From IMG/VR virus record IMGVR_UViG_3300021093_000004: a stretch of DNA of 64,000 bases; one strand, 5' to 3'. This DNA comes from a virus. Taxonomy: Duplodnaviria > Caudoviricetes. Made by a program: the position numbers and the translations under genes. Position 1 is the stretch's first letter. Every line of letters begins with the position of its first letter. The notes below the pieces were generated by a model. It made no database searches, had not been told where the DNA came from, and was given only the letters and a program-made list of their open reading frames with translations. This document shows positions 1 to 64,000 of this stretch, piece after piece.

Positions 1-209
1 CTTGTTTACAGCTTGAGCACCAATAGTATTTTTTGCCACAGCTTGAGCTATTGGCGCATTTCCAGAAAGTGCTGCTGCCGCACCGGCCATACTTTTTAAG
101 AAATTTCGTCTGGTGAATTCAGCTTCAATTATCAGTGATAATTTCATGCCATGGGTCCCATGTATAATGTTTGTTTGGTTGATGTTATATTTGCGTATTT
201 ATATGTCTT

Positions 210-1829
210 ATGATAGCTTACGTTGACAATCAATGGATTTATCTTGATCATATTACTGATCCTGAGGATCAGATAATATGGGAAGAATTTAGCGTTTGTA
301 AGCCGAATGTCTATATCGATCCAGCAATGCGTGGTAATTGGGATGGAATCTATCGCAAATACAATCGGGCTAAAAAGCGAATGGCTCGACCTCTATTGAG
401 CATGCTTCGAGGAGTGTGTACGAAGCACGGATTGCCGTTGATCATACAAGATCGTCGCCAGCAGTGGGCATACGAGGCTGCAAAGCCAGAAGATATAACC
501 CCAGACTTCTTGCCAGGTATTAAGCTCGAAGATTATCAAATTCGGGCGATTCAGAAATGTTGCAAGGCTGAGTGCGGAATCATTGATATGCCCACTGGAA
601 GTGGGAAGGGTGAAGTCATTTGTGGCATTTGCAAAGCGATTCCCTGCCCCACATTGATTCTGGCAGATCAACGAGTGGTTGTGGATCAGTTGAAAAAACG
701 GCTTGAATTGCGTGATATCGCTGAAGAAGTTGGTTTGTTCTATGCTGGCAAGCGACCGAACGGCGAGATGGTCATAGTTGGGTTGATTCAATCATTGAAT
801 CCACCAAAAAAGCCGCCAGATGTTCCGATACGAAAGCTTAATGAAACAGATAATGCATTAAACAAACGGCTGCAAAAATGGGATCAATCATACAAAGCAC
901 ATCAGACTAGGGTGAAGAATGTCAAATTCTTATATTCATATGTCAGAAAGGCTGAGATGATAATTGTCGATGAATGCGACAAAGCCACTTCGGAATCTTA
1001 TAAATCACTGTTCAGACACTATTATAAGGGGCGAAGACGGTACGGATTTTCTGCAACGCCTATCGACCCGGATAAGCCAGTGGAAGCGATGGTGATGCAG
1101 GAGCATCTCGGATCGATTATCGTGAAGGAAACCCGCGATAATGTTCAGAAGCATGGCCGAATCATTCCATGCCATTACAAAATGATGGCATTCGGTCTAG
1201 AGGGAAACATTGATGAAGCTTCGGCTTATGATATGGCGTATGTTGAATGGTTAATCGAAAACCAACGCTTTCATCAGCTTATTACTAGTATCTGCAAGAA
1301 ATATCGGGAAGACGGAACGTTGATTCTTGTGGATCGTAAAGATCTTGGATTCGCATTGGAGAAATCAATTAACGGTCAGGGAATGGAAGCTCACTTCATT
1401 TATGGCGAGACACCAAAGCGTCGCAGAGATGAGATACTGCGGAAGTTTGAAAAGCGAGAGTTCAACGTACTTATTGGTGGTAAAATTATCAATCGTGGAC
1501 TCGATTTGGCAGGAGGCTGTGAGAATCTGATAATTGCTGGAGGAGGTAAACTACAATCCGACTTGATACAAAAAGTCGGACGTGCCCTTCGAAGAAATCA
1601 ACAAGGATATAGCAGGATTTTTGATTTTTTCTTCCGATGCAACAGATATCTCTACAGTCACTCGAAATCCAGATTGAAAGCCATGGTAAATGCCGGATTC
1701 GACGTTCAGGTAATATTCCCCGGTGGTGTCATTGATGGCCGAGAACTCGTTGAAAAGCGACGATTTAGAATCGAACGAAAGTTCTTCTCTAGAGCAACAA
1801 CAGCCCAGCGAACCCTCTTCAACACCTGA
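210..1829 (+). CDS. uvsW: Superfamily 2 DNA helicase, T4 UvsW-like
   Basis: Walker A MPTGSGKG, motif II IVDECD, motif III FSAT, motif VI QKVGRALR. N-terminal ..WDGIYRKY.. segment and a position next to the head module are typical of T4-like phages. Confidence 0.88.
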   Translation: MIAYVDNQWIYLDHITDPEDQIIWEEFSVCKPNVYIDPAMRGNWDGIYRKYNRAKKRMARPLLSMLRGVCTKHGLPLIIQDRRQQWAYEAAKPEDITPDFLPGIKLEDYQIRAIQKCCKAECGIIDMPTGSGKGEVICGICKAIPCPTLILADQRVVVDQLKKRLELRDIAEEVGLFYAGKRPNGEMVIVGLIQSLNPPKKPPDVPIRKLNETDNALNKRLQKWDQSYKAHQTRVKNVKFLYSYVRKAEMIIVDECDKATSESYKSLFRHYYKGRRRYGFSATPIDPDKPVEAMVMQEHLGSIIVKETRDNVQKHGRIIPCHYKMMAFGLEGNIDEASAYDMAYVEWLIENQRFHQLITSICKKYREDGTLILVDRKDLGFALEKSINGQGMEAHFIYGETPKRRRDEILRKFEKREFNVLIGGKIINRGLDLAGGCENLIIAGGGKLQSDLIQKVGRALRRNQQGYSRIFDFFFRCNRYLYSHSKSRLKAMVNAGFDVQVIFPGGVIDGRELVEKRRFRIERKFFSRATTAQRTLFNT

Positions 1830-3353: not shown

Positions 3354-4050
3354 TGATTTACAACATTTGTTAAATCAGTTAGATCCAGAAACTCCTGTCA
3401 TTTCAAAAGCCGCTCCCAAGACTTCACCCAAAGCTTCAAAGGCTTCTTCACAACCTCCGATTGAAGAAGATGAAGAAGTGAGTGATAGTGGAGCAGCATG
3501 GATTGAAGGGGTCATTGACCCGTCTGAATTGATATCTGTCGATCCATCTCAATCCGATTTATCCAAACCCGATGATGCCATTTTATTTCCTACGGACGTT
3601 AGAAATATAGATGATATTGGATCTGATTCGACGACTGCATTTGCAACATTGATGGATACTCCACTGGCACCGGCAGTGCCATCTATCGATCTTCAGAAGT
3701 ATCTCAATCGTCTTGATGGTGTTACTGATGAAATTCTTGGTGCTTGTCGGTCAGATCGACAGGAAGCACAAGATGTGATTCAGATGTTCAGGCAGGAGAT
3801 CGAGCAGGCACTAAATCAAAGTAAAGCTCCGTCTCGCATGTTTATCGATGGATTGGTTAAGGCAGTCGAGGTCAAAGCCAATATCAATATGACGGCAGTC
3901 AAAATGATGGAAGCTAACGCGAAAATGTTGGCTTCAATGAAAGCTACTACCAGCGTCCAAGTCAATAATCAAAATGTAAGTGTGACCGGCAATGACCACG
4001 ACTTGGAGCGAATTCTTGACGAACCTATGAACGCAGATGATGAGTTTTAA
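3346..4050 (+). CDS. Hypothetical protein, possibly terminase small subunit
   Basis: Acidic N-terminus and helical C-terminus; its stop overlaps the terL start (TAATG). The function call is positional only. Confidence 0.35.
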   Translation: MDDDLQHLLNQLDPETPVISKAAPKTSPKASKASSQPPIEEDEEVSDSGAAWIEGVIDPSELISVDPSQSDLSKPDDAILFPTDVRNIDDIGSDSTTAFATLMDTPLAPAVPSIDLQKYLNRLDGVTDEILGACRSDRQEAQDVIQMFRQEIEQALNQSKAPSRMFIDGLVKAVEVKANINMTAVKMMEANAKMLASMKATTSVQVNNQNVSVTGNDHDLERILDEPMNADDEF

Positions 4051-6026
4051 TGGCAGTAACTGCACAACATAGAGCGATCATCAAAAGATGCCAAAGTTCC
4101 GTGGTATGGTTTCTCCGTACCTACGGTAAATTAAAGCATCCGTCTGCCGGTATTATCCCATTCACCCCATTTTCATATCAACGAAACGCGATTCGAGCGT
4201 TTAGAAAATATCGCCTCAATATTTTCCGCAAATGCCGCCAAGCTGGTGCATCTAAAATTGCTGGAGCATTCGCATTATGGTTTGCGATGTTCCACAATCA
4301 TAAAACTATTCTGATAGTTTCGCGTCGTGATGAGGACGCGATGTCGTTTTTACGAGAACATATTGTATTCCTATTCGGGCATTTGCCAGACTGGATGAAG
4401 GAATTATGGAAACCGGTGAAGCAAAATGAGCATGAAATCATGTTCCCCAATGGGTCAAGAATCCAGAGCTTGACCTCACATCCGGACGTTCTTCGTTCTA
4501 ATGCATCGTCATTGAATATTATTGACGAAGCGGCGTTTATTCAGGGAATGGATTCCATGTGGGCTGGTGGTTGGCCTACTCTGCAACACGGTGGTAATGT
4601 TATAGTCATCAGCACTACGAATGGTGTTGGTAACTGGTATTGGGCAACATGCACCGAAGCGGAAAGCGGATCGAATCAGTTCAATCCCATTGTTATCAAT
4701 TGGTGGGATATGGACTGGGTTATCGAATATTTCGATCCAATCTCGAAAGAACACAAACGAATCGCTCCGCGTGATGGCTTGCGGAAATGCACGACTAAAG
4801 AAGAGATTGTCAAATACGGACAATACTGGTCTCCATGGTTGGAGGAACAGTACCGAGCATTGCAAGCTCGTGGCGAGTCGTGGAAGTTTGAACAGGAAAT
4901 TCTCGCATCGTTTATCGGATCTGGTAATACGGTACTTCCAAAAGAAGTATTGGCACATCTTGCTACAACAGTTCGTGAGCCGGTTCAGCGTGTCAGAGGG
5001 ATGCAGACATACGTGCATCCGGTGACGGGTAATGTTGAAGAACTCAGCTTCGACTTTAATGAACCTGATGAAGGATTATGGATTTGGGCCAAACCGGTGG
5101 TGGCTCGCCCTGAAAAACGTCGCGGCAATGAGATTATTGAGCATAGTTCACCTGCACATCCATATGTGATGGGTGTCGATACCGCAACTGGCAAAGGGAA
5201 GGACTATCATGCTATAGAAATCTTCGATGTTTATACTCGTGAACAAGTGGCTGAGTTTATGGCCCGATGTTTGCCACGAGAATTGATTAAGTATATCGAT
5301 CGAATTGGAAGATGGTATAATTGTGCATTGGCGGTCGTCGAGCGTAATAATGGTGGTGATATTATCATCGACGAACTGCGATATACTGTAATGTATCCAC
5401 GGTTGTGGCGACGCAAAGAAATTAATGATAAGCCGCAACCTCAAGGTCGTGGTAGGAGGCGTGCACGCCCGTTGAAAGTCAGCCCATATGGGTTTTCAAC
5501 ATCGCAGGCAAGTAAACCAACGTTGAATCAGTTTCTATTAAACTGCATTCGTGATAATAACGAAGATGGATATACAATTTATAGCAAGAGATTACTGAAG
5601 GAATTTAACACGTATGTTAGAAAGCGTGATAGATTAGGTCACGATACTTCTAAGACAGAAGCTGAAGAAGGTGCAGGAAACTTCGATGACTTGGTAATCG
5701 CTACTGCATTGGCTCTGTTAGGTACATCGGATGCATTTGTAGTTGATGCGGGCAATCTGACTCCGTTTGGTGGTAATTCTACATTTAAGAGTCAAACTGG
5801 CCCGACCATTCTGTCGGATGAACAATCTGCACATGTGCAAGAAGATTGGGCGGGGAAAGGCGGGGCTGCGTTATTAATGCCTATGGCTTTAGCTCCGACA
5901 GACTTCCCAGAAATTGTAGCACAGCGACACCTCGATTCTTATACGCTTCAACTTGGCGGCATTCCCATCAGCCAGGGTCGCCCGCTTGTCACGCCGCCTA
6001 AATATTTCTACGAGCGTAAAGGTTGA
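4050..6026 (+). CDS. terL: Terminase large subunit (T4 gp17-like)
   Basis: RKCRQAGASK (Walker A-like), IIDEAAF (Walker B), ISTTNG coupling motif, nuclease motifs MGVDTATGKGKDYHAI and DDLVIATALA. Confidence 0.95.
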   Translation: MAVTAQHRAIIKRCQSSVVWFLRTYGKLKHPSAGIIPFTPFSYQRNAIRAFRKYRLNIFRKCRQAGASKIAGAFALWFAMFHNHKTILIVSRRDEDAMSFLREHIVFLFGHLPDWMKELWKPVKQNEHEIMFPNGSRIQSLTSHPDVLRSNASSLNIIDEAAFIQGMDSMWAGGWPTLQHGGNVIVISTTNGVGNWYWATCTEAESGSNQFNPIVINWWDMDWVIEYFDPISKEHKRIAPRDGLRKCTTKEEIVKYGQYWSPWLEEQYRALQARGESWKFEQEILASFIGSGNTVLPKEVLAHLATTVREPVQRVRGMQTYVHPVTGNVEELSFDFNEPDEGLWIWAKPVVARPEKRRGNEIIEHSSPAHPYVMGVDTATGKGKDYHAIEIFDVYTREQVAEFMARCLPRELIKYIDRIGRWYNCALAVVERNNGGDIIIDELRYTVMYPRLWRRKEINDKPQPQGRGRRRARPLKVSPYGFSTSQASKPTLNQFLLNCIRDNNEDGYTIYSKRLLKEFNTYVRKRDRLGHDTSKTEAEEGAGNFDDLVIATALALLGTSDAFVVDAGNLTPFGGNSTFKSQTGPTILSDEQSAHVQEDWAGKGGAALLMPMALAPTDFPEIVAQRHLDSYTLQLGGIPISQGRPLVTPPKYFYERKG

Positions 6027-6046: not shown

Positions 6047-6571
6047 CTATTCTTCCGTACCATAGAGCGGTTCTGGTTCGTGGCTTACGGATTTAGTGAA
6101 AACCAACTGTCGGCTTAATGATGTTACAAAGACTGCACACCAATAACGCCCAACTTTCGCGAACCCACAATTTTTATATTTTCTGGCTAGAATGTGTCTA
6201 CGATGTCCGGAAGATGACATCCAACCTTGCATGACTGACGTGACTGTGCTATAACCACGTGCGATATTCTCTCCCATTGCTTGTGGACGATGTCCTTCAT
6301 CCCTGATTCTGCTAGCAACGTTCGAACCACGTGATCCTCTGTGCGACAACAATTCGTTATCGGCCATCCATTTTGCATGCTTCTCTGCGGCTGTAACTAA
6401 CTTACTATCGAGAGTTAATATACTTACACCCGCTTTTGTACGTTCATTGTTGTGAGCGACTAACAATTCTCCAGCAACGGACGTTGGTGTAGGTGGTGGC
6501 AATGGGGGTTGTGGCGGAGTAGGTCGGTTTCGTCTAAATATGTCTCGGAGCCAGTACCAAAAATCGCTCAT
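6047..6571 (-). CDS. CAP (SCP/Tpx-1/Ag5) domain protein with Pro-rich N-terminus
   Basis: HNNERTKAG, AAEKHAKWM, LSHRGSRG, GENIARG, WMSSSGHRRHIL and YWCAVF are canonical CAP motifs. Start placed at MSDFWYW (6571); the ORF track extends to 6631. Confidence 0.88.
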   Translation of the reverse strand: MSDFWYWLRDIFRRNRPTPPQPPLPPPTPTSVAGELLVAHNNERTKAGVSILTLDSKLVTAAEKHAKWMADNELLSHRGSRGSNVASRIRDEGHRPQAMGENIARGYSTVTSVMQGWMSSSGHRRHILARKYKNCGFAKVGRYWCAVFVTSLSRQLVFTKSVSHEPEPLYGTEE

Positions 6572-6601
6572 TGTTTTTACCCTCAATGGCACCAATTTCA
6601 G

Positions 6602-6610
6602 TAAATATAG
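6602..6610 (+). promoter_or_regulatory. Putative phage late promoter TAAATATAG upstream of portal
   Basis: The same or a near-identical AT-rich motif recurs just upstream of other genes (17150, 26835, 29070, 32761, 40368). Analogous to the T4 late promoter TATAAATA. Confidence 0.45.
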
Positions 6611-6631
6611 AATAGATTTTGAGGACCACAT

Positions 6632-8611
6632 ATGCCGAGTAACTGGCTAGTTTTCGACAGAATACGTGCACTTACCCGGCAGCACCGTATTTATCAAGCA
6701 GAACGAGTATATCAAGATCAAGCACATCTTGATCGTTTAACTGCTGGCGGCGAATTTCTTGACTTTAATCAACAAGCCGCTATCCTCGATCAGACCAATC
6801 TACAGATTAATAGATTGGAGAGGTATAAAGATTATGAACAAATGGATCAGACTGGCGAAATCAGCCTTGGTTTAGATTTATATGCCGATGAAGCTAGTTT
6901 AGTCGATCCTGAACGAAAACACACATTGATTATTCGAGCACGCAATCGGCGGCTGAAGCACGAGCTTGAAGATTTATTCTTCAATACGCTTCGTTGGGAC
7001 ACATTCTGCCGTCCCACAGTCCGATACCTATGCAAATATGGTGATTCTCCGTTCGAGGTAATTCTGGACGCTAATCGTTCCGGCGTCTCTGCTCTTAAAT
7101 TCATGAACGTCTACAATTTCACCAGAATTGAAACACGATATGGTGATCTTGTTGGATTCTTTTATATGGATGCAATTTGGCCGCGTCCAATGTTTCTTCA
7201 TCCGTGGCAAGTAATGCATTTGCGGTTGACCAGCTTTGAAAACATCTACCATCCATATGGTCGTTCAGTGTTAGATGGCGGACGCAAGGCATTCAAACAA
7301 TTGCGGCTGATGGAAGATGCTGCGTTGATTTACAGAATTACTCGTGCACCGGAGAAACGTAAATTCACTATTCCTGTCGGCATGATTCCGCCAAAAGAAG
7401 TGCCGGAATATATGCAGATGATCGCACGGAATTTCAAACGCCAGCGATTCTATAATCCAACTACCGGCACGTTCGACGAGCGATATTCTCCACTTATTCA
7501 AGAAGATGACTTCTTCTTGCCGCGTCGTCCAGACGGAACTGGTCCGGATGTTGACGTTTTGCCGGGTGCTGAGAACCTCGACCAAATTAAGGATATCGAA
7601 TATTTCAAGAAGAAAATGGTGTCTCCAATGAAAATCCCGTTCGCACGGGTTGGAATTGGGGAGGGGGCTGGCGAAGCCAGTGAAAAATCGCTCTCACAAT
7701 CACACTCGGAATTTTCGAAAGCTGTTCAATGGATACAACGTGAAGTTGCCACCGGATTAACCAAAATTGCTATCATTCACCTCGCGTTACGTGGATATCG
7801 TGTCGAAGATCTGCGTGGATTTGAAGTTGCTCTTACTGCAACTTCTGCGATGGAAGAATTGTATAGAATCGAAACATGGCAAACTCGCGTAGCTGTGATG
7901 GCCGATCTCAAGGATTTGGGATGGTTTCCGAAAGAATGGATTGTGACTCACTTTACCGACTTGTCTCCCGATGAAATTCAAGAATTGAAGGATATGGAGC
8001 AGACTGCTACGCAAAGTGGCAGCAGTGGTGGTGGCTTGGATCTTGGAGTTGGTGATGAAGCACCAACCCCACCAACTGATGCGGCTGATATTCCCACGGA
8101 TGCGGCTGGTGGTGCTCTAGAAGACGCAGCGGGTGCTCTGGGGGCTGAAGCTGGTGGAGACACTCCTCCGCCAATTGAAGGATTCGATTATGCTGCTGAG
8201 AAACGCTTGATACTTGAACTCCGTAAACAAGGTCGCATGAATGAAGCCAAAGTTATCGTGGAGCGATGGGCGGCTCGGATAGGTCGATCAGCAGAAAAAC
8301 CTCTGATTGAACATAGTAGCGGCTACGATTACATTTTGGCTTCCAAAGAACTCGATGGGTTATCGGGATCTCCTCCTACCCTTCGTCATGAAGGTAATGG
8401 GAAATCACCCTCTACGATTTTGGAAGAAATTTACAACCCAAACAAAGATAAAGAGTTACTCGTCGAATGGTCTGTTGACGAAGACACTCGCAATGACGCA
8501 ATCAAAGAGATTTACGACGTTCTGATGGATGGATCGCTAGTAGAATCCGAAGAGGAAGTAACTGAAGTTACCGAAAGCGATCTTCCGTCAGTTGCCGTTA
8601 GTGGCCTTTAG
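6632..8611 (+). CDS. gp20: Portal protein (T4 gp20-like) with acidic C-terminal extension
   Basis: LRLMEDAALIYRITRAPEKRKFTIPVG, QEDDFFLPRR, LPGAENL, DIEYFKKK; lies between terL and the prohead genes. Confidence 0.95.
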   Translation: MPSNWLVFDRIRALTRQHRIYQAERVYQDQAHLDRLTAGGEFLDFNQQAAILDQTNLQINRLERYKDYEQMDQTGEISLGLDLYADEASLVDPERKHTLIIRARNRRLKHELEDLFFNTLRWDTFCRPTVRYLCKYGDSPFEVILDANRSGVSALKFMNVYNFTRIETRYGDLVGFFYMDAIWPRPMFLHPWQVMHLRLTSFENIYHPYGRSVLDGGRKAFKQLRLMEDAALIYRITRAPEKRKFTIPVGMIPPKEVPEYMQMIARNFKRQRFYNPTTGTFDERYSPLIQEDDFFLPRRPDGTGPDVDVLPGAENLDQIKDIEYFKKKMVSPMKIPFARVGIGEGAGEASEKSLSQSHSEFSKAVQWIQREVATGLTKIAIIHLALRGYRVEDLRGFEVALTATSAMEELYRIETWQTRVAVMADLKDLGWFPKEWIVTHFTDLSPDEIQELKDMEQTATQSGSSGGGLDLGVGDEAPTPPTDAADIPTDAAGGALEDAAGALGAEAGGDTPPPIEGFDYAAEKRLILELRKQGRMNEAKVIVERWAARIGRSAEKPLIEHSSGYDYILASKELDGLSGSPPTLRHEGNGKSPSTILEEIYNPNKDKELLVEWSVDEDTRNDAIKEIYDVLMDGSLVESEEEVTEVTESDLPSVAVSGL

Positions 8612-8733: not shown

Positions 8734-11700
8734 ATGACATCGAATACAACCGGCCCGGTACGAATTGACAGTCGCAAATTCCTTGGTGCATTGAACGATT
8801 CTGCTCAGGCAAAAGTTGCCGTTTTCGAAGAGCGGATCGAACAAATGGGCCGCTCTGCTGGTAAACAGTGGAGACTAGCTGCTCTTCACGCCAAGCAACT
8901 TTATATTGAAGATGTGAATGCGCAACAATTCTTCATTGCAGAACACGTCCGCGAGGCCCATGGCAAGGTCACAATCACTAATATTAGACCTCTCGAAATT
9001 GTTGAAGAAGAAAAGCAAGGTCTGTTTGCTGAAACCTGCGAGAAATTGGTTTCGGCAATTGAAGAAAACGACCAAAAGGGCATGCAGGTTTCATTTGACC
9101 GCATGAAAGCCCAGCGATTCTCAGGTCGGGCTGTTCCTTACTCTGGTGCTGTTCGATGCCGAGATGGTGTTCTGCGACGCATCAGTATTCAACCGAACAA
9201 TGTCAGTCTCGAAAACAATGTGCGGTCAAAACTGGTCGCTGTGATTGTCGAGAATCTGCGAGATCGCGTTCTTGTCGAGAACGGAACAGTCGTCTCCGGT
9301 TCATTCGGCGATGGAGAACCGATCTCGTTGCCTGTCACGAAATGGGCGGCACGAAAGCTGGTCGCTCGACGGATGATGGAAGCCGCCAAGAATGCATACT
9401 GGTCCGAAGGATTCCAAAACCGCGTCTATCACGCTGCCAGATTGGTGTCTGAAGCGAAAATCGACGACGCTGTTCAGGCTGTGACACCATTCTTAGAATC
9501 GATGGAGGAATTCACACTCCTCAATCGTGCTCAATTCCAGACATTGGTTGAGAACGCATTGGCTTCGAAAGCGATTTTCAACCAGCAACTGTGTGATGAC
9601 ACCGCTACGCTCTTCTTCAGAACCAATATGAAGCTGAGCCGCCGTAAGATTATCGATGAATGGAGAAATATTGCCAAGAAGTCGGAACATCCGGCGTTGA
9701 TGGAAAATGTGCGGATTCTCGAAGAATCGAAGAATTTCGAGAGTGCATACCAGAAATTCTTGGCATTGATTTTCGAAACAATTTCAAACCGAGAAGTCGC
9801 CGCCGAAGCTTTGGCCACGACTTTGGATGTCTTGCGAAACAAGACTCCGAAAATTCGGGAGTCGCACGAATTGTCGAGCAAGTTGAGCAGCTTGATCACG
9901 CGGTTGAAGGACAAAAACTTCGACGATGCTGCGATCTATGAAGCCGAGGATTTGATCGCGACAATTCAAGAAGAGCTTGCTGCCGCCGACACACTTCAGG
10001 GATTCGATCAAATGCCACCTGGAGGTGGTCCGGCTGGAAGTGATGCTCTCGATCTTAGTGGCGATCTTGGGGGCGGCGGTGGTGCTCCTGTCATCAATAT
10101 CAACTCTCCGCTGATTCAAATTGGTGGTCAGAGTTCTGGCGGTGGTGCCGGTAAACCGGGTGCTGGAGCCGCTGGAGAAGTCCCTCCGCCTTCGCCAGCC
10201 GGTGGTGACGAAGATCTGGATGCCCTGTTGGGTGCTGGCGGTGGTGCTCCTCCGGCTCCGGCCCCTGCTGCTGCTCCTGCTGCTCCTGCTGCTCCTGCTC
10301 CGGGTGCTCCTCCGGCTCCGGGCGGTGCTCCGCCGATGGAAGGCAAGTACAAGAAGAAAAAACCACTATCAGAATCCCGTCCTGTTCATTATGAGATGAA
10401 GAAGGACGAAGATGACGATATGCCGTGCGATGACGATGAGATTGAGGAAGGCTTAGATCCATATGCTATTCGGCGTGATGAAGGAATCGATCTCTCAGAA
10501 GGTGTTCATATCACTGATTACGGCACGCCGGTAATCACTGATGAAGGAGACCTCGAAAAGATCATCAGAATCATGCAGCGTTTGGCGACCGAAAATCGTC
10601 TGTCTGGTAAGCTTCTCGAACAAAGCCTTCCCAGCATGGCGAAAGCCTCGTTGAAAGCCTTGGGAATGCGAATCCCAGAAGGCAAGATGTCGAGAGCACT
10701 GGAACAGGTTGTAACGTGCTTTTTGGAAAGTGACGACGATAAGGGTGGTCCATTCCCTGGTGCCGCTCCGCCGTTCAAGAAGAGTGGTTCGGACGATTTT
10801 GTTTGTGATGATTCTGGCGATTCCGGCGATTCCGAGAAGCCATGGGAATCAGATGATTCGGACGATGAGGGTGTGGCCGAAGATCAGTACCGAAGCCCAC
10901 GAATTACTCCACGCGGATATGGCCGTGCCAGCGTTGGGAAGACGACCAAGGAAAGCCGCATTAGATGGGGACAGGCACAGAAAGATGCTGTTCTTGGTGA
11001 ATATGCGGGAGTTCGATTCATCTTCGACCATGGTGGCTCTGATGAATCTCTCACTCCTGTCATCTTGAGTGAAGACGGATCGGTTGAAATTCCAATTCCG
11101 AAAGCACTTTATGAAAGCGCGTTTGCCGCTGCGAAGATGAGCTACGGCGATCCGCGTGCATTCACCAAATGGATCAGTGAATCGATTGAGCAATTGCGTC
11201 CAATTGATGACGGTGAAGACAATGCCTTAAACGAGGCCATGGCGAAAATCACGACCGGTCCGGATGGAACGATATCCGTCGAAGTCTCTGATGATATCGA
11301 TGTTGGAAAACTTGGAGCCGGTGGTGAAGGCGGCGATGATGGTATGATCGCCGACATGGGCGACTCCATGGATGATATGGGCGATGCCGGTGATGATACT
11401 TCCGGAATGTCGCCGGTCGATTCTATCAATGCTCCCGGAGATGATGCTGGAGACATGGGTGGCGATGATGATGCCATGCCAGACTTCGAAAATGGCGAAG
11501 ATTCGATGGATGGAGAAGTCGCTGGTCCACCAGAAATGGGAGACGAGGAGGACGAGGAGGAAGAGGAGGAAGTGGAGGAAGAGGACGAAACCGAAGGAAT
11601 GGTCGAAGATCAGGATGTGACCAGTCCATCGAATGCCAAATATACCAAGCACGTAAAGGATAATTTACGTGATATGCCAACTCCGAAGTTGCCGAAGGCC

Positions 11701-11790
11701 ACTGACGACGAGTTAGAGGACATTGGTCCGACCGTCAAGAAGGATGATGGCACCGGAACCAAGCCGCCAACGGCGAAAAAGGGAGATTAG
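8734..11790 (+). CDS. Large acidic low-complexity prohead core/scaffold-like protein
   Basis: 1018 aa: helical N-terminal half, an Ala/Pro/Gly linker and Asp/Glu-rich tracts. Sits between portal and prohead protease, with multiple [ILV]-x-E motifs. Confidence 0.6.
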   Translation: MTSNTTGPVRIDSRKFLGALNDSAQAKVAVFEERIEQMGRSAGKQWRLAALHAKQLYIEDVNAQQFFIAEHVREAHGKVTITNIRPLEIVEEEKQGLFAETCEKLVSAIEENDQKGMQVSFDRMKAQRFSGRAVPYSGAVRCRDGVLRRISIQPNNVSLENNVRSKLVAVIVENLRDRVLVENGTVVSGSFGDGEPISLPVTKWAARKLVARRMMEAAKNAYWSEGFQNRVYHAARLVSEAKIDDAVQAVTPFLESMEEFTLLNRAQFQTLVENALASKAIFNQQLCDDTATLFFRTNMKLSRRKIIDEWRNIAKKSEHPALMENVRILEESKNFESAYQKFLALIFETISNREVAAEALATTLDVLRNKTPKIRESHELSSKLSSLITRLKDKNFDDAAIYEAEDLIATIQEELAAADTLQGFDQMPPGGGPAGSDALDLSGDLGGGGGAPVININSPLIQIGGQSSGGGAGKPGAGAAGEVPPPSPAGGDEDLDALLGAGGGAPPAPAPAAAPAAPAAPAPGAPPAPGGAPPMEGKYKKKKPLSESRPVHYEMKKDEDDDMPCDDDEIEEGLDPYAIRRDEGIDLSEGVHITDYGTPVITDEGDLEKIIRIMQRLATENRLSGKLLEQSLPSMAKASLKALGMRIPEGKMSRALEQVVTCFLESDDDKGGPFPGAAPPFKKSGSDDFVCDDSGDSGDSEKPWESDDSDDEGVAEDQYRSPRITPRGYGRASVGKTTKESRIRWGQAQKDAVLGEYAGVRFIFDHGGSDESLTPVILSEDGSVEIPIPKALYESAFAAAKMSYGDPRAFTKWISESIEQLRPIDDGEDNALNEAMAKITTGPDGTISVEVSDDIDVGKLGAGGEGGDDGMIADMGDSMDDMGDAGDDTSGMSPVDSINAPGDDAGDMGGDDDAMPDFENGEDSMDGEVAGPPEMGDEEDEEEEEEVEEEDETEGMVEDQDVTSPSNAKYTKHVKDNLRDMPTPKLPKATDDELEDIGPTVKKDDGTGTKPPTAKKGD

Positions 11791-21423: not shown

Positions 21424-21496
<73 letters not shown>

Positions 21497-25162: not shown

Positions 25163-25167
25163 TTATA

Positions 25168-43660: not shown

Positions 43661-43671
43661 TGGGAATTCCA

Positions 43672-52667: not shown

Positions 52668-52676
52668 TCCCTGTGA

Positions 52677-52848
52677 ATTGATGCCAGTTAGATGTAGCGG
52701 AAACCTTACCGCTGTTGAGTTACGGGGAATGCACCCTAAGTCGGAGCGAGTGAAGCTGGTCGTGCTTGAACTAGCTGCGATGCCGAAAGGCAAAACCTCG
52801 GCAAGCTATCACATCGATGGGAGTTGAGACCCATTAACTGGTGTCAAT
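52677..52848 (+). ncRNA. Candidate multi-stem structured RNA (unassigned)
   Basis: 14-bp closing helix ATTGATGCCAGTTA/TAACTGGTGTCAAT (2 G-U pairs) enclosing GATGT/ACATC, AGCGG/CCGCT, TAGCT/AGCTA with a TGCC-GAAA-GGCA tetraloop hairpin, and ATGGG/CCCAT. Confidence 0.6.
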
Positions 52849-52886
52849 CTTTTGCCACAATGTAATATACCAACAGGGAGTTAAAT

Positions 52887-54715: not shown

Positions 54716-54922
54716 ATGTCTGAACCGACAGTACCAAAGGACGCACGACCGAACAGTCAAGCATTCGAAGTTGACGGTCGTATTTGGGTCAAAATTGATA
54801 GAGATTTGGCAGTCAGTCTTGGCGTATTGATACTTGCGACCGACACCAAAAATCCCGCACTACTGGCTCTTGGACATCAATTAAGGAGTTTCAAACATGA
54901 GCAACCGATACCATCCCCATAA
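54716..54922 (+). CDS. Small hypothetical protein
   Basis: SD GGAG; 68 aa. Confidence 0.55.
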   Translation: MSEPTVPKDARPNSQAFEVDGRIWVKIDRDLAVSLGVLILATDTKNPALLALGHQLRSFKHEQPIPSP

Positions 54923-55118
54923 ACATGTTGCGGTCGCTGGTCCGGACAGGGACGACGATTATGACGATGACGATGACGACGACATCGATTATGGCGACGA
55001 TGGCCTCGATGACGACGAGGACGATCTAGACGAAGATCAGGATGAGGACTCAGAATACGAAGATGAAGATGAAGATGAGGATGAAGACGACGACGAAGAT
55101 GAAGACGACTTTGAGTAG
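54897..55118 (+). CDS. Extremely acidic microprotein
   Basis: SD AAGGAG; 73 aa with a C-terminal region dominated by Asp/Glu. Confidence 0.65.
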   Translation: MSNRYHPHKHVAVAGPDRDDDYDDDDDDDIDYGDDGLDDDEDDLDEDQDEDSEYEDEDEDEDEDDDEDEDDFE

Positions 55119-55121
55119 TCG

Positions 55122-56718: not shown

Positions 56719-58053
56719 ATGGATTGCGGCAGTAGTTCGATATTACCGAATGGTCGGTGTTCTGTTTTACCGATTCTCGCCACAGACGGCCAAGTCTTTG
56801 TGGATAGCGAGTTGGTGAAATGGATCTATAATGCATCTACGGATCTTTGGGAAAAATCCGGTACCGCAACTACCATTCCTCTTGCATCAACAGCCGGTGT
56901 TGGCTACCTTTCTTTTCGCGATAAAGCATTACTAGATCGAATTCCACCGGTACCGGGCGGTTTCGGGATTATCACCGACACCAAATTATTGCTACAAAGC
57001 CCGACCAATCCGGAAGGAATTATTCGAGGCGACATTCAATTAAAAAGCGAAAGCCTAGACATTATATGTGTTGGCCCGGAAGGTCTTAAATTAAATTGTT
57101 CCACCCCACCGGAATTAGAATGCACATCTCCAACTGGTAGAACTCCTGGGCTGCTGTTTAAATTAAGCAAGAAATTCTTGGATACTCTTGTGGTCAATAT
57201 GCCAGGACCACAAGGAAAAAAGGGCTATACGGGCGAAAAAGGAAAGGCTGGTAAGCCGGGATTTGCCGGTGGTCCCCCAGGGATACCTGGAACTCCGGGC
57301 GATGACATCGACGAATTATGTCAGTTAACAGGAATTCGCTATCGCGATATCAATGGCATAACCGAAAAGGCAATCGTTGATCTCAACTTAGTTGATGATG
57401 AGGGTCGCGGTTGCAAACTGGTTGTGACTAAGGCCAGATTAAATGTCCCTGGCGATGTCCCAGCCGATAAGATTATTGCGACTCCATTGATCCGGAATAT
57501 CGTATATCAGCCTGACCCAGATCCGGATAACTGTGACATCACGCGAATAAACCAGTGGACACTGACTAAGAATCCGGGCGATGTCACGCCATTAAATCTC
57601 AGCTTGCTGCGATTGTCTCGCGGAGCCGATGCTGTCTCTAACGAGCCGGTCGGATTTAATACCACATTATCGCTACGAAAGTTCGTGACAGATATTGTAG
57701 CGGAACATCAGCGACGCTTGAAAAAGATCGATGAGGCATTTGGCAAACAAGCTCGATCCTACATTGAAAGAATTGATGATAAGGCTAGAACTATATTATC
57801 ACAACTAGCCAATGAATTGGCAATGTGTGAATTCAATCTGCCAGCGGTGGAATACTGTATTACATTTACGGGATGTGACCAACCACCTCCACCTCCACCA
57901 CCTCCACCTCCACCTCCACCTCCACCACCGCCAAGCCCAATACGGGCAGCAGCGATGCGGGCTGGAGATGGGGACCATGAAGGGATACCAATATCTGGTC
58001 GAAAGCTGACGAGCGTTGCGATGGGTGCTAAAAAGTGGGGTATTAAACAATGA
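56719..58053 (+). CDS. Virion structural/fibre-like protein with a collagen-like Gly-X-Y tract and a poly-Pro tract
   Basis: GPQGKKGYTGEKGKAGKPG; about 17 consecutive Pro codons (57883-57933); Cys-rich. Confidence 0.65.
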   Translation: MDCGSSSILPNGRCSVLPILATDGQVFVDSELVKWIYNASTDLWEKSGTATTIPLASTAGVGYLSFRDKALLDRIPPVPGGFGIITDTKLLLQSPTNPEGIIRGDIQLKSESLDIICVGPEGLKLNCSTPPELECTSPTGRTPGLLFKLSKKFLDTLVVNMPGPQGKKGYTGEKGKAGKPGFAGGPPGIPGTPGDDIDELCQLTGIRYRDINGITEKAIVDLNLVDDEGRGCKLVVTKARLNVPGDVPADKIIATPLIRNIVYQPDPDPDNCDITRINQWTLTKNPGDVTPLNLSLLRLSRGADAVSNEPVGFNTTLSLRKFVTDIVAEHQRRLKKIDEAFGKQARSYIERIDDKARTILSQLANELAMCEFNLPAVEYCITFTGCDQPPPPPPPPPPPPPPPPPSPIRAAAMRAGDGDHEGIPISGRKLTSVAMGAKKWGIKQ

Positions 58054-60248
58054 GCACCGAATTGACAACGGTTGATCCATGCACGCTGTTCCCGGCTAAT
58101 CCGACCCACGGAATGCTTTTCGAACAGAAAAATGGTGTCATATACCAATATGACGCTGCTATTCATGCATGGCTTAAGCTTGCGTCAGATAATATCGTTT
58201 TACCGCTCGCAACCACAACTCGCGATGGTGCGATGTCACTAGACGATTTCAAGAAATTGAATCGTCTAGTGATTCCACCTCCTATATCCAGTATAATTGG
58301 TACTGATTGTCTCGCTTCTTACCAGCGTGGATCGATTAGCTTATACTCCGGAGACCAATTTGTATCAGTAGATGGACATTTAGATGTTCAAAATATCGAT
58401 CAATTTGGAGACCAGATCTCTGAAGAGGTTCCATTCCAGATCCATCAGCATACGTATGGCTTTGATTTTACAGTTGATGCTCAACAATTAATATCAGAAC
58501 TAGAAAGACGTGGCCAAATTCGTCTTTCTGGTCGTGATGGACAAAAGGGTGACACTGGAGAAACTGGTGATCCTGGAATCAACGGTGTTATGGCAGGACC
58601 ACCGGGAGATTCTGGCAACGATGGGTCCGCGCCTACTTGCACACTTTCGATTGAACCGGAAACCTTTCAAGCTCAAACAAGGCCCGGCTTAAAGCGAGCA
58701 TTGGTTGATGTTCGAGTGATTCCGGATGTTGTTGATGATAGGAATTTCGCACTTGAATTTGATCGCCAAGTGGTTGGTAATGAGAATGGCTCTGCTTCAC
58801 AATTCAGAGTGAAGCAGATTGAAAGCACTTGGTTATTGGCGGTCTCTGTCTTCACGGATGAAAGCGACACTACAGAGGCTTTAAATTGCGGTGTTCCGGG
58901 TGAACGAAGAAATCAATTCTATACCCTATTTTATATTGATATTGAACCAATATTGAATACTATTCAAACGAAATTCTTCGATGAAGTTGAACGATTGAAA
59001 AAAGGGTATCAAGACATCGTTGCGTTCTGGGTACAAACGATGTCCGATTTGTTCGATGAACAAAAAGATGCTTTATGTTGCGCTCTTGAGAACTGTATTT
59101 CTGGCAAAAAGAGCACACATGCCCGTGAACACATGGAGACTATCGCAGCGTTGGCATTAGGAAAGGCCAAAATCAATCTTCATGGAAGACATAGCAAACA
59201 AGCCGTTGAATTATCGAGCACTCGGTTATTGCATGAACTCGGTGGACCGGATCTCTGCAAAGGTGGTCCGGATTTTCCACAAAACCCTGTAGCAAAACGT
59301 GGGGATGACGATGGCGATAGTGCAGTCGTTGCGTCGTCCGCGAGCGTAACTCCATTATTAATTGATATAGACCCATTGGTTAATTCGGCTATCTCAAGCT
59401 CGAAGCAGATTGAATTGCCTCAAGGAATTTACGTCGCAACGATAAAACAAGCTACGGCTCAAGTCAATAATATGCACCGTAGTAATGTGAAAATTCGCTA
59501 TGTGTCAAATGGAGAACATAAAACCACTCAATTCCTTGATAAAGGTGCGTTTTCTTCATTAATCGAAGCCCAATCAGCATATGAGGGATTGTCGATCTCG
59601 TTTAAGCATGATGGTGGTTTCATAGAAGCATTTCTGCCATCGATTCAGCCACGACAATCATCTGGACAGATAAAAATTCTGATTGATAAGACTTCCGAAA
59701 CGGTGGTAATACCGGTTCCGGAGCCAATTCAGTCTGAAATATTAACGCCTAAAGTATCTAAGACTGACAAACCACGGCGTAAAAAGCAGAAAGAATCCAA
59801 AGCGAAACGGGCTGAAGTCGTAACTACTAAGTCTGCAGAACAATGCCAAATGTCCGTATCTCATCTTGCATGGTATGAGAGCGGTTGGTCATCAGGTCGG
59901 TGCTGTGGCTTGGTCGTAAATGTGGCCGGACAAGATTATATCGTCGTCAAGCGATCAATCGGTTCGGAAGACAATTGTGGTGGTGGTGAAAGCCTAGACA
60001 CACCTTGTATAGCTAAATTCACTCATGCTCAGGGACATCCGGCATTTGCATGGCCGACATTCGACGGTCGCACATTTGCTCCCATTCCGGCATCGGGTTT
60101 TGTCACGTTCGAATATGATAAAGCCTTAAACGAATTAGTTGCAGCCAAGATCGCCAAGTCAGAGTATAATAATGGTGTTGGCAATCCAAACGGCATCCGT
60201 CATCTCAGCTATCAATTGATGACGATTTTATTTCCATCGGCACAATAA
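58050..60248 (+). CDS. Virion structural/fibre-like protein with a collagen-like tract, paralogous to the preceding gene
   Basis: Shared N-terminal motif (Y.A....W.K...PLA....G.[LM]S..D...L.R[IL]); GRDGQKGDTGETGDPG; ATGA overlap. Confidence 0.65.
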   Translation: MSTELTTVDPCTLFPANPTHGMLFEQKNGVIYQYDAAIHAWLKLASDNIVLPLATTTRDGAMSLDDFKKLNRLVIPPPISSIIGTDCLASYQRGSISLYSGDQFVSVDGHLDVQNIDQFGDQISEEVPFQIHQHTYGFDFTVDAQQLISELERRGQIRLSGRDGQKGDTGETGDPGINGVMAGPPGDSGNDGSAPTCTLSIEPETFQAQTRPGLKRALVDVRVIPDVVDDRNFALEFDRQVVGNENGSASQFRVKQIESTWLLAVSVFTDESDTTEALNCGVPGERRNQFYTLFYIDIEPILNTIQTKFFDEVERLKKGYQDIVAFWVQTMSDLFDEQKDALCCALENCISGKKSTHAREHMETIAALALGKAKINLHGRHSKQAVELSSTRLLHELGGPDLCKGGPDFPQNPVAKRGDDDGDSAVVASSASVTPLLIDIDPLVNSAISSSKQIELPQGIYVATIKQATAQVNNMHRSNVKIRYVSNGEHKTTQFLDKGAFSSLIEAQSAYEGLSISFKHDGGFIEAFLPSIQPRQSSGQIKILIDKTSETVVIPVPEPIQSEILTPKVSKTDKPRRKKQKESKAKRAEVVTTKSAEQCQMSVSHLAWYESGWSSGRCCGLVVNVAGQDYIVVKRSIGSEDNCGGGESLDTPCIAKFTHAQGHPAFAWPTFDGRTFAPIPASGFVTFEYDKALNELVAAKIAKSEYNNGVGNPNGIRHLSYQLMTILFPSAQ

Positions 60249-60763
60249 TGCGTGTTAAAGTTGAACAATTCTGTTCATTGGCTACATCACCATCTTGGCA
60301 AGCATGGTTGTACCATTTCAATGCCGAATTATATCGCCGATTTATCAAACGGTTACAGGAATCACGCGGTTGCAATCAAAATCGCGATTTGATGACTGAG
60401 ATACTGCGAGAAATCGATACTTCTGGTGGTAGTGATGCATTAGGAACATTTCTATCAAAACATTACCCACATATGATTGAAGGACTGGAACGCATCCAAC
60501 CAATCCAGTCAAGTGGTAGTGTTTTTGAATATTATAATCCAAATATCCTAACTTACCCGCGTCGTATAATCTTTACTGGTGATTTGCGTAGCCTTCGGCA
60601 TACCATCAATGAATTCGTTTTGGACAAAATTAAACATGATAGTATCATCGTTGGAAATACGGCATACATAGAGTATCTGACTTCCGACGATAGTGCTATT
60701 GTGGATAAAATTCCAGACCAAAATTGGCAAATACCTGCTTATCGCTTGCGGACATTTAAGTGA
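60248..60763 (+). CDS. Hypothetical protein
   Basis: TAATG-coupled 171-aa ORF. Confidence 0.6.
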   Translation: MRVKVEQFCSLATSPSWQAWLYHFNAELYRRFIKRLQESRGCNQNRDLMTEILREIDTSGGSDALGTFLSKHYPHMIEGLERIQPIQSSGSVFEYYNPNILTYPRRIIFTGDLRSLRHTINEFVLDKIKHDSIIVGNTAYIEYLTSDDSAIVDKIPDQNWQIPAYRLRTFK

Positions 60764-60812
60764 TATCGAGCGATTTTTAGGACCAGATTGTATCCACGCA
60801 AAATTGATACAG

Positions 60813-63800
60813 ATGAGTCTCTTTGGAACAATTGCTGGCGAGTCTACAATGGATATAACGCAACATTCTACAACGGAAATTCGTTTAAATAAACTTGGTC
60901 AACCAGAATTAGTACGCAAACGCAAAGGAAAACGACCAGAAGGTACTTTAAGTGAATTAGCAGATGATATCTCACATCTGTTGGAATATATGGAATTTGG
61001 CGGTCCAATGCCAGCCATGTCGCCTGAGCAACCCCCAAATGATCGTGCTTTAAATCAGTCACCAGAACTGGTTGCATCTCGTGGTGATCAGATACGTAAC
61101 CATGACGAAACGATCACCAACATGGGAGGATCGACTCCGATGGCTGCTGATTCTCCGGAATTAAGCAGGGTCAAAAGTAGATTACAAGCAACCGCCACAG
61201 GCAACAAAGTTCGAAACAAATATATTGCAGGCTCTACGGGTGTAGGCATTGATTATAGTGCCCCACGAACCGAAAGCTTTACTGGGACATCAGGGATTGC
61301 AATAGCCCCCACTCAATACAATGTCATCGGTGATGATGACGATGAGGAAGAATCAAACCAAGCGTCGGAGAGTAATATGAAGAGGACAATCGATGATCTT
61401 CTGCTTGAATGGGAGCCGGAATTCAAGGGTGGCGAATACAGCCCTGGCGACTATCAAATGGTAAGCCCATCTGGGGATGGTGTTGTTAAGCGGAAGCCAA
61501 AGCAAGATCGTACTGGTGCGTTTGACACCGATACGACTGAAGCTGGCAAGCCATTTCCGGGCAAGCACAAAGTCACTGCGGCTATGTGCGATGTCGATGA
61601 AGATGGCGTTGAAAACAAGCCTCAAGGTGGTCATGAAAGCAGCGTTGGCGAGCCAACAGACGGCCATCAGTCGAAAATGGGCCACGACTGGCCGAAGAAA
61701 GCAAAGCACTCCGGTGGCGGAGTTGCAGAGCCATTTAGCGGCACACGTTGGAGCGACGGTGGTACTCTCGAAAGCGGGAGTGGATCGGACGACAATAACT
61801 ATAGCAAAGGCAGCCCTGGATCGCCAAAAGGAGGCCCTCGGATGGGCGAACCGATGGAATGGTCTCCAGAGAAAATCGGTCAACTGCTCGGCGAAGAAGC
61901 AGACTTGCAGAATCTGTTCGACAGTTATGCTCGGACATCGCCACAAGTTCACGTTGAAGGCTTCCAAGAACTGTGTGACGCACACGGTTTAGGGGTGATG
62001 CTCGATGAATCATCACTGCTTGGTCTGATGGCAGCCAATCAAGAATTCATGTTCCATGAATATGGCGACTCTAACGGAACATATTGGTTGGCCGAAGAAG
62101 CCGAGGAGACCCACCGGAATATAGATTGGGACTGTGAATTTTTTCATGGGGACAATGAAGAAGCTCTCCTGGCAGCTACGCTGAATGACATCCAATTGGA
62201 GGAACTTCCTTCTTTTATCAGAACACTAAACGATTTCTTGGATAGTCCGGGCTACGTGACCGGTTCCTACCCAGAAGAATGGAAAATCGACAATATAAAA
62301 CTGGACGGAAGCGACGACGCCATTATTCACCTGCGAAATGGAGATACGTTCGATATCTCCTCTGAAACATCTTTCTTGGACATCATTAAGTTGCTGGCCC
62401 CCCCGATTACCGAGGGTGTAATATCCGAGTTGCAAATCCGGTCCCCGGAGGAGGAAGCTAGTCTGTTTAAAGGCCGGTATCCCACTGGTGATCCGCACTA
62501 CGACGACGATTACAATGCCCGCCTTAAAGCTGGCCGTGACCCCATGGATCGCTTTGGTTCTGGTCCAATGGGAGCCGCTGATGAGTACGGCGACGATGAG
62601 TTCGGCGACGATGAGTTCGGCGACGATGAGTACGGCGACGATGAGTTCGGCGAAATGATGCATGGTGAGGAAGACATTCCTCAAGAAGAAGCCCCGTACT
62701 TCGAAGGTCGTGAAATCGTCACCGGTCCGCAGATGAATGAGTCGCTTGGCAAATTCATGACATCGGCACGCTCACTGATCGAAAACAGCAAGGGTGTGAA
62801 TCGAAGAGATATTGCTAACGCTCTGAACCGTTCGTGGGAATTCCACGCTGGAAACATTAATGCTGCGACCACTCCGACGAAAGTTCAAGGGACTCTTCGC
62901 CAGATGATGGAAAGTTTTCCGGGCTTCAATCCATTGCTGAATGAAGCTGGAAAGGATGCGATGGAATCTGCTTCCGGGAAGGCCATTACCGCTGATGGAA
63001 TGAAGCAATCGCCGCATTTGAACAAGCAGCCCGGTCCGGATGAAATGGAGCAACACGGCAGCAAAGATAATCCTCTTAAACGTGATCAAAAGAACACGTA
63101 CACTTCGACCCCGATCATGAAGGGCACGGAGAAGGGATTGACTGGTACCGGAAAAGTCAAGGAAGAAAGTAAACTCTCCGGACCGAATGCCGCTATCCTT
63201 CGAGACAATGTGAACAAACTTGCGAAGAAAATCCGCGAGTCGATCCGCGAATCTGCCAAAGGGCTTCGCGGGAAACACACCGTGAATTTCTCGATCGTGG
63301 TAGCCGAAGGCAATGCCAAAACGCGAACTCCAACCCGGTCACAATTGGTTGAGGCCGTTGCCGATCTGGAAGAAGTTTTGCAATTCCACCCGCTTGACGA
63401 TGTTACATTCGAGACGCGGTTCAAAGACATCAAGGGGCACGTAGTGCTCAAGAACGATGTTCCGCTCGCGACCATCAATCAACGTGGGCCAATCGTTGCC
63501 GAAGGACGAGCGATCTTTCGATTCACACGAAACGCCGAGCTCTTCGCCAACGAATTGGTGGTTGAAGGGGTCACATGCCGCATTCAGCCACACAATTGGG
63601 GCACTGCGGTAGCAGCGAAAGTGACGCTGGAAAGTGCTACCGCTGCCTTCCGTGTCCTCACTGAAAAAAAAAAGAAGTCATTAAAGGACGCTTGTTGGGA
63701 AGGTTACGAAGCGATCGGATTCAAAAAGGGTAAAGGCGGAAAAGAGGTACCAAATTGTGTGCCTATGAATGAGAATATCCGCGATAGCAATGGCTTAAAT

Positions 63801-64000
63801 TATAATTCAGATAGGCACCAGAAGGCAAATATAAGAACTAACAGAGGCACCAAAGTAGTGCTTTATCCACAACAGCAACTAACACCCACTCGCCGCTTTG
63901 TCGAACTGATCACTTGGCAATTCGACAGAGGATATGTGACACCTCTCCGAAATTCGCGTAGTCAATTAAGTTGGTATATTAGTCGAGAACTGCCGAAGTT
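60813..64000 (+). CDS. Long acidic prohead/internal-head-like protein, truncated by the window end (>1060 aa)
   Basis: Manual reading shows an open frame from ATG 60813 to the window end; it is absent from the ORF track because it has no stop. Many [ILV]-x-E motifs, DE[YF]GD repeats, and the phage motif CWEGYEAIGFKKGKGGKEVPNCVP. Confidence 0.8.
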   Translation, partial: MSLFGTIAGESTMDITQHSTTEIRLNKLGQPELVRKRKGKRPEGTLSELADDISHLLEYMEFGGPMPAMSPEQPPNDRALNQSPELVASRGDQIRNHDETITNMGGSTPMAADSPELSRVKSRLQATATGNKVRNKYIAGSTGVGIDYSAPRTESFTGTSGIAIAPTQYNVIGDDDDEEESNQASESNMKRTIDDLLLEWEPEFKGGEYSPGDYQMVSPSGDGVVKRKPKQDRTGAFDTDTTEAGKPFPGKHKVTAAMCDVDEDGVENKPQGGHESSVGEPTDGHQSKMGHDWPKKAKHSGGGVAEPFSGTRWSDGGTLESGSGSDDNNYSKGSPGSPKGGPRMGEPMEWSPEKIGQLLGEEADLQNLFDSYARTSPQVHVEGFQELCDAHGLGVMLDESSLLGLMAANQEFMFHEYGDSNGTYWLAEEAEETHRNIDWDCEFFHGDNEEALLAATLNDIQLEELPSFIRTLNDFLDSPGYVTGSYPEEWKIDNIKLDGSDDAIIHLRNGDTFDISSETSFLDIIKLLAPPITEGVISELQIRSPEEEASLFKGRYPTGDPHYDDDYNARLKAGRDPMDRFGSGPMGAADEYGDDEFGDDEFGDDEYGDDEFGEMMHGEEDIPQEEAPYFEGREIVTGPQMNESLGKFMTSARSLIENSKGVNRRDIANALNRSWEFHAGNINAATTPTKVQGTLRQMMESFPGFNPLLNEAGKDAMESASGKAITADGMKQSPHLNKQPGPDEMEQHGSKDNPLKRDQKNTYTSTPIMKGTEKGLTGTGKVKEESKLSGPNAAILRDNVNKLAKKIRESIRESAKGLRGKHTVNFSIVVAEGNAKTRTPTRSQLVEAVADLEEVLQFHPLDDVTFETRFKDIKGHVVLKNDVPLATINQRGPIVAEGRAIFRFTRNAELFANELVVEGVTCRIQPHNWGTAVAAKVTLESATAAFRVLTEKKKKSLKDACWEGYEAIGFKKGKGGKEVPNCVPMNENIRDSNGLNYNSDRHQKANIRTNRGTKVVLYPQQQLTPTRRFVELITWQFDRGYVTPLRNSRSQLSWYISRELPK
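62580..62654 (+). repeat. 15-bp tandem repeat x5 (DE[YF]GD)
   Basis: Unit GATGAGTWCGGCGAC. Confidence 0.92.

Follow-up and report, generated by a model that had tools for sequence, protein, structure and literature searches.

The viral record IMGVR_UViG_3300021093_000004 (Duplodnaviria; Caudoviricetes), of which a stretch of 64,000 nucleotides (nt) was analyzed (hereafter the window, to which all coordinates refer, with strands given in brackets), raises the question of which bacterium this phage infects. An earlier note on this DNA had described it as a T4-like jumbo phage that probably infects Planctomycetota, a phylum for which we know of no described cultured phage. The host part of that proposal is supported by the capture of one of the genes that it listed, at 41971-42393, whereas the other listed genes, the spacers of clustered regularly interspaced short palindromic repeats (CRISPR) and the transfer RNAs (tRNAs) contribute nothing to it. 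The host is probably a freshwater member of the Planctomycetaceae, the best candidate being one genus of 54 species in GTDB or a close relative of that genus.

The captured host segment (41910-42397, +), as delimited by blastn and a genome scan, is composed of a leader of about 60 nt and the gene at 41971-42393, which codes for a secreted, Cys-rich protein of 140 amino acids; in this protein, a signal peptide is followed by a central part rich in Cys and, at the C-terminus, by a beta domain that is conserved. This protein has 61 homologues in a set of 5.8 billion proteins, and all six of the named ones are proteins of Planctomycetota metagenome-assembled genomes (MAGs). When the family alignment was scanned against one genome per species, covering 185,579 prokaryote species, 85 relatives were found and 80 were kept. 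The titles of 77 of these loci name Planctomycetota, mostly Planctomycetaceae, Fuerstiella or 'Planctomyces', and three are titled 'uncultured Chitinophaga' (L020, L026 and L044); the latter titles are wrong, because the contigs are collinear over nearly their full length with planctomycete-titled ones, at 82-89% nt identity. By these comparisons, all 80 kept loci are planctomycete and the family is restricted to Planctomycetota. Seven lake MAGs titled 'Candidatus Kuenenia' (L034, L043, L053, L059, L078, L079 and L083) are placed among rows of Planctomycetaceae by the gene tree, and their labels are doubtful.

The similarity extends to the DNA itself. Window positions 41910-42397 match contig JBJTPZ010000312 (L004), from a freshwater Planctomycetaceae MAG, with 91.2% nt identity over 499 bp (blastn), and the same segment is 86, 85, 82 and 82% identical to that of four congeneric MAGs (L005-L008). 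The five closest genomes (5.6-7.6 Mb) all belong to the GTDB genus of 54 species, which contains the MAGs JBJTPZ01, SXXK01, CAITYU01, CAXBSH01 and CAIOKE01, and 52 of its 54 genomes have a nucleotide match to a 20-kb stretch of the window that includes the gene, the match being located in the gene for most of them. The homologous stretch opens about 60 nt before the ATG, where a small GC hairpin and a ribosome-binding site lie, and stops at the stop codon; the phage copy carries a 9-nt in-frame deletion. The bacterial loci have flanks that are mutually syntenic and show no synteny to the phage, and their neighbours are chromosomal: a DCC1-like thiol-disulfide oxidoreductase gene, found downstream in 20 of the 80 loci, a CDF cation-efflux gene, found in some, and genes for PSCyt1-domain proteins. 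Some of these loci are part of contigs as long as 0.28-2.66 Mb. The maximum-likelihood tree has the phage protein as sister of the copy from JBJTPZ01 (L004), within a Planctomycetaceae clade of 13 rows that has an SH-like approximate likelihood-ratio support (SH-aLRT) of 98. The captured gene has a G+C content (GC) of 55.8%, with 65% at third codon positions (GC3), as against 43-47% in its flanks and 46.7% in the window, and the bacterial loci have 57-59%.

At the level of sequence, these results show a recent transfer of DNA from this genus, or from a near relative, into the phage, which would have been a direct capture because of the 91% nt identity, the retention of the native leader and the host-like GC. 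The earlier description of gene 41971 as planctomycete-type is thus borne out, both by the restricted distribution of its family and by the 91.2% nt match to a Planctomycetaceae MAG. The gene is present in three independent assemblies, and two other samples have contigs (L208, on 201 kb, and L209, on 77 kb) that show it in the same setting between phage genes, with 99.95-99.97% identity. The start of eight short assemblies of the phage, obtained from different samples, falls within 42139-42891, at or just past the captured gene; this clustering could reflect a variable spot, or a repeat also present in another genome of these samples.

A phage acquires cellular DNA only in a cell where phage DNA is present. 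In the proposed course of events, phage DNA inside a cell of the Planctomycetaceae genus would have recombined with the chromosome, and a chromosomal piece of 0.49 kb, comprising the gene with its own leader and ribosome-binding site, would have been taken up; the donor genus would also be the current host. This genus is the likely host because its DNA was captured and capture needs phage DNA in that cell, and the family is found in no other phylum, so that no alternative donor is known.

Several results weigh against this assignment. The captured gene is the sole host-linked gene in the approximately 103 kb of this phage that were examined, and 10 IMG/VR relatives, including five complete ones, do not carry it; the capture is thus a feature of this lineage alone, from which the host of the clade at large does not follow. 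No further captured DNA was found when the window was compared with the five closest genomes, or when 40 kb were compared with the 54 genomes of the genus. The same comparisons gave no match resembling a CRISPR spacer, with only the best few candidates per genome scored and with MAGs in general often being without arrays. In none of the 54 MAGs of the genus was a capsid gene of the phage clade found, which leaves no sign there of a co-binned phage or a prophage, and no identical or near-identical tRNA common to the phage and the candidate genus was found. Best homologues in Planctomycetota were not seen for the CAP protein, the C1 peptidase, PurB, RarA, the 40451 protein, P0114 or the sulfatase of a relative, the handful of genes that were tested. 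P0114, a second 'planctomycete-style' secreted protein encoded 33 kb upstream, is without an nt match in the genus, and 151 Planctomycetaceae genomes gave no real match to it; the sulfatase belongs to a relative with a complete genome and reaches only 29-39% identity to those of Planctomycetaceae.

The other DNA matches in those scans were low-complexity stretches, tRNA similarity and the conserved Gmd gene. Matches at 10230-10344, 54951-55114 and 57882-57933 were considered as spacers or transfers and rejected, being low-complexity coding repeats. A small open reading frame (ORF) at 54898-55119 codes for an extremely acidic, Asp/Glu-rich low-complexity protein of 73 amino acids, and gives spurious nt matches to many bacterial genomes. 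GC3 is much higher in the late structural genes (67% in the capsid gene at 13402-15021, 55-59% in the fibre-like genes at 33470-36759 and about 40% elsewhere), which could be an adaptation of codons to a host with 57-59% GC.

The reading of these data that best competes with a planctomycete host is that the host of the phage belongs to a different phylum, such as Bacteroidota, Verrucomicrobiota or Pseudomonadota, and that the phage obtained the gene indirectly, from a mobile element, a former host or a non-planctomycete carrier cell. It would account for a signal that is carried by one gene only, for every other tested accessory gene being without planctomycete affinity and for relatives that do not have the captured gene, and the deposited phages nearest in portal and large terminase (TerL) are uncultured huge phages or have Flavobacterium or Microcystis as hosts. 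However, those phages are 27-36% identical to this one in the two proteins, a level of identity that carries no information on the host, and, across the 185,579 species, the family did not turn up in any genome that is not planctomycete, which leaves no known alternative carrier. Identity of 91% at the nucleotide level, together with the native leader and the host-like GC, indicates a direct and recent capture, so that an indirect route through another phylum is considered unlikely.

It is very improbable that the gene moved in the opposite direction, from phage to bacteria, the bacterial copies being phage-derived. The tree is unrooted and gives no direction, the phage copy and L004 being simply sisters, but in Planctomycetaceae the family is widespread and has a conserved chromosomal synteny, also on contigs of the Mb scale, 52 of the genus's 54 genomes have matches while the gene is absent from 10 related phages, and its GC fits the bacteria and not the phage; moreover, a transfer in either direction would still need the phage inside such a cell. 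That the host-like segment is an assembly chimera or a binning artefact is scarcely credible, since, despite the several short assemblies that begin at 42.1-42.9 kb and a record of the exact protein on one contig only, the 0.49-kb segment has phage genes on both sides, the arrangement is repeated in the 201-kb and 77-kb contigs of two other samples, identity to the nearest MAG is 91% and not 100%, and the bacterial copies are on mutually syntenic contigs of five different MAGs.

A host in or near the 54-species genus of Planctomycetaceae thus depends on the captured gene. The further genes in which the earlier note had seen a planctomycete affinity (those for the CAP protein, the C1 peptidase, the proteins at 15199 and 40466, purB and rarA) turned out to have none, their homologues being distributed across unrelated groups. 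The CAP/SCP-domain protein (6047-6631, -; Pfam CAP, E 1e-19) belongs to a phage family, its nearest Atlas cluster is 100% viral and it has no match in the five closest candidate host genomes (G001-G005), which removes it as a host clue. A small secreted protein with FVAAPVVQQ-type repeats (15199-15561, +; identified from its translation) has one homologue only, 40% identical, among the 5.8 billion proteins, leaving no basis for calling it planctomycete-type.

An envelope-directed cassette (38250-41431, +; Peptidase_C1, E 1.4e-7, and translations) codes for a membrane protein, a lipoprotein, a papain-type C1 peptidase, a transmembrane (TM) protein and a CxxC lipoprotein. The peptidase (39170-39985), which had also been taken as pointing to the host, is of a phage family, with viral nearest Atlas clusters, and none of the five candidate host genomes that are closest gave a match to it. 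The CxxC lipoprotein (40451/40466) has 31 homologues, all of them unnamed metagenomic proteins and one of them on a phage-like contig of 64 kb; the planctomycete type ascribed to it finds no counterpart in any of 301 Planctomycetota genomes. The peptidase-TM-CxxC part (39278-41419) recurs at 50-60% amino-acid identity on an otherwise unrelated 64-kb metagenomic contig (L106:8938-10972) with a resolvase, and thus behaves as a mobile module among phage-like elements. The cassette is phage-borne and not planctomycete-derived.

The adenylosuccinate lyase PurB (17624-18673, -; Lyase_1, E 3.5e-34) is missing about 85 C-terminal residues. Its residues 1-343 match adenylosuccinate lyases of the Bacillus/Thermotoga type in the PDB (E 1e-64), and its identity to the protein of the candidate host genus is only 34-35% over 119 amino acids, so that it does not serve as a planctomycete clue; it could act in the succino-intermediate step of a 2-aminoadenine pathway. 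For the AAA+ ATPase of the RarA/MgsA type (43660-44835, +; MgsA_C, E 1.4e-27; AAA, E 2.9e-15; phrog_5846, E 1.8e-59), the nearest Atlas clusters are distributed over phyla of the candidate phyla radiation, Pseudomonadota, Bacillota and Actinomycetota, and the affinity supposed for this gene is likewise not seen.

The tRNAs reported previously are present: six were identified by ARAGORN, and five of these also pass Rfam. They are a tRNA-Met with a CAU anticodon (21424-21497, +; ARAGORN, and Rfam with 73 bits) and a cluster with tRNA-Leu(UAG), Leu(CAA), Val(GAC), Ser(CGA) and Leu(UAA) (24908-26059, +; ARAGORN, four of the five also in Rfam). The two halves of the phage tRNA-Met are 94% and 86-89% identical to those of a split tRNA-Met of the candidate genus, and tRNA-Leu(UAA) is 75% identical, values that correspond to ordinary tRNA conservation. 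In the candidate genus, the gene for tRNA-Met(CAU) is split in the anticodon loop by approximately 398 nt (L098, G001:C258:14086-17129, and also L096, L097 and L099). This insert matches Intron_gpI of Rfam below the threshold (32 bits, E 1e-5), and the gene is missed by ARAGORN; the tRNA-Met of the phage is uninterrupted.

With respect to the virus itself, the window contains a head module of the T4 type, as had been claimed, with Pfam matches to Portal_T4, Peptidase_S77, Gp23 and the terminase. It is composed of the large terminase, of the T4 gp17 type (4050-6026, +; a weak Pfam match to Terminase_6N, E 4.7e-6, with 26.9 bits against a cut-off of 22; phrog_2, E 1e-32), the portal, gp20 type (6632-8611, +; Portal_T4, E 5.1e-67), the prohead protease, gp21 type (11794-12576, +; Peptidase_S77, E 4.1e-17; phrog_207, E 1.5e-38), and the major capsid protein, gp23 type (13402-15021, +; Gp23, E 6.4e-80, 269.8 bits against a cut-off of 24.4). 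The ORF listing, PHROGs and Pfam place the genes of this module in one orientation and in the T4 order. Between portal and protease lies the gene for an acidic protein of 1018 amino acids with an Ala/Pro/Gly low-complexity stretch (8734-11790, +), which gave no match in Pfam and PHROG searches and is, by its position, a candidate prohead core or internal protein; of the very large prohead proteins mentioned in the earlier note, the size is therefore confirmed, while the role is assigned by position and no family match was obtained. The product of 12639-13358 (+), a charged helical protein of 239 amino acids rich in E, A, Q, R and K, had no match in a Pfam family search and is probably the scaffolding protein, judging from its composition and its place between the protease and capsid genes, which is that of gp22.

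The 39 kb upstream of the window were followed on the phage's own contigs using precomputed Pfam matches. They carry Phage_sheath_1, two Phage_T4_gp19 tube genes, T4-gp15_tss, gp13, T4_baseplate, GPW_gp25 and Phage_base_V (a gp5-like hub), in addition to genes for a class II ribonucleotide reductase, an NAD-dependent ligase and Gmd. Given these contractile-tail genes, the phage is a T4-type contractile-tailed virus and, with the head module inside the window and the sheath, tube and baseplate genes upstream, the description as a large T4-like myovirus was correct. Exact copies of its capsid and helicase proteins are found on approximately 20 contigs from one set of lake samples of the Joint Genome Institute (JGI) and the Sequence Read Archive; the JGI sample numbers are presumably those of the Lake Tanganyika series, a tropical freshwater lake. 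A planctomycete MAG of the same JGI project (with Ga0194132 in its contig name) also surfaced in the species-genome scan for the captured-gene family. Among the contigs with these exact proteins, one has 201,355 bp, its ends still missing, and others fall in the class of 0.2-1 Mb; the relatives that have terminal repeats measure 370,804 and 395,473 bp, and the size of a jumbo phage (>200 kb) is thus confirmed. The genome size is estimated at roughly 350 kb. The virus is an uncultured jumbo myovirus of the T4 type, apparently lytic, in a deep-branching, uncultured and well populated lineage.

This lineage is represented in IMG/VR by 161 contigs whose capsid proteins are 71-92% identical to that of this phage, and its genomes are of 341-408 kb (e.g., IMGVR_UViG_3300030385_002649, 3300032132_000001 and 3300013121_000020). 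Five of these relatives, estimated to be 98-100% complete, have 354-408 kb, and the two with terminal repeats have 371 and 395 kb; unlike this phage, none of the 10 relatives tested has the planctomycete gene. Among deposited records, the closest are LR756511 (595 kb) and LR756508 (484 kb), with identities of 40% for the capsid protein (LR756511), 28-29% for TerL and 36% for the portal. Both are, like this phage, known from metagenomes only, but their genomes are much larger and the kinship, judged by capsid, TerL and portal alone, is distant; TerL is at most 29% and the portal at most 36% identical to that of any deposited phage. With T4-like phages (Straboviridae, Kyanoviridae and allied T4-core myoviruses), this virus shares the set of gp23, gp20, gp21 S77 and gp17 types in the T4 order, as well as sheath, gp19 tube, gp15, gp13, gp25 and a gp5-like hub (here upstream of the window). 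It differs from T4 in a genome of about twice the size and, apparently, in the helicase next to the terminase, and from cultured T4-like phages in general by identities of only about 25-34% in capsid, portal and terminase among the cultured phages listed; for the capsid protein, the value is about 28-31% to the cultured T4-like phages among the matches listed.

That helicase (210-1829, +) is a superfamily 2 DNA helicase of the XPB/Rad25 type (ResIII, E 1e-16; Helicase_C, E 5e-12; ERCC3_RAD25_C, E 8e-7; phrog_16, E 1e-56). It had been named UvsW, an assignment not sustained by the PDB, in which its relatives are RAD25/XPB and no UvsW chain appears at E<=1e-5, so that it is not demonstrably UvsW. 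The rest of the window contains a sugar-modification cluster with a DegT aminotransferase (29787-33314) and a pair of genes for an AAA ATPase and a metallopeptidase/VWA protein of the DUF2201 type (51360-54344, +; AAA_16; phrog_1297, E 3e-55; DUF2201_N, E 2e-23; DUF2201, E 8e-19), a pair that is common in large phages, with tblastn matches in 103 phage records. The region 56719-63998 (+), with weak matches to Collagen and to tail-fibre PHROGs, is probably a tail-fibre region with collagen-like repeats, and its last ORF leaves the window.

The earlier note also held that lytic phages of this phylum are poorly described, which is only partly true. Literature phrase searches for described planctomycete phages found none, but lake phages predicted to infect Planctomycetes from metagenomes have already been published, from an enrichment of Lake Fargette (PMC9040852) and from Lac Pavin (PMC9875498). 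The first of these studies contains phages or phage-like fragments of more than 300 kb, for which its passages on them give no host (PMC9040852). As far as their descriptions go, these phages are likewise freshwater and uncultured, with hosts assigned from gene content or CRISPR, whereas the link presented here is a gene capture at the genus and nucleotide level, without a CRISPR match (PMC9040852, PMC9875498).

As for the function of the captured protein, an AlphaFold model built from the family alignment shows an all-beta domain (predicted local distance difference test, pLDDT, 73) and a disordered Cys-rich loop. No solved analogue of this fold was found, and the matches in the AlphaFold DB are to its own uncharacterised family. 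In the phage, the gene comes after the exported cassette that ends in the CxxC lipoprotein. Our best guess, held with low confidence, is that it codes for an exported envelope protein handling metals or disulfides that is expressed during infection, and that it may act in the host envelope together with the adjoining exported cassette of protease and thioredoxin-like type.

Planctomycetaceae are abundant in lakes, where they matter for the turnover of carbon and nitrogen. Phages predicted for Planctomycetes are already known, and what is new here is that the host is anchored with unusual specificity: to our knowledge, the host links published so far for lake phages are coarse predictions from metagenomes, while a link at the genus and nucleotide level names a concrete host for isolation. 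The result also calls for caution in assigning hosts by the style of genes, as only one of several 'host-like' genes withstood testing. With this link, a large uncultured clade of jumbo phages gains a host hypothesis. It is possible, although doubtful, that the whole cosmopolitan, uncultured clade of T4-like phages of 340-410 kb is a major lineage of lytic Planctomycetaceae phages; if this were true, its Lake Tanganyika member would be the first to anchor the clade to a host genus and would offer a route to the first jumbo-phage isolate of the phylum.

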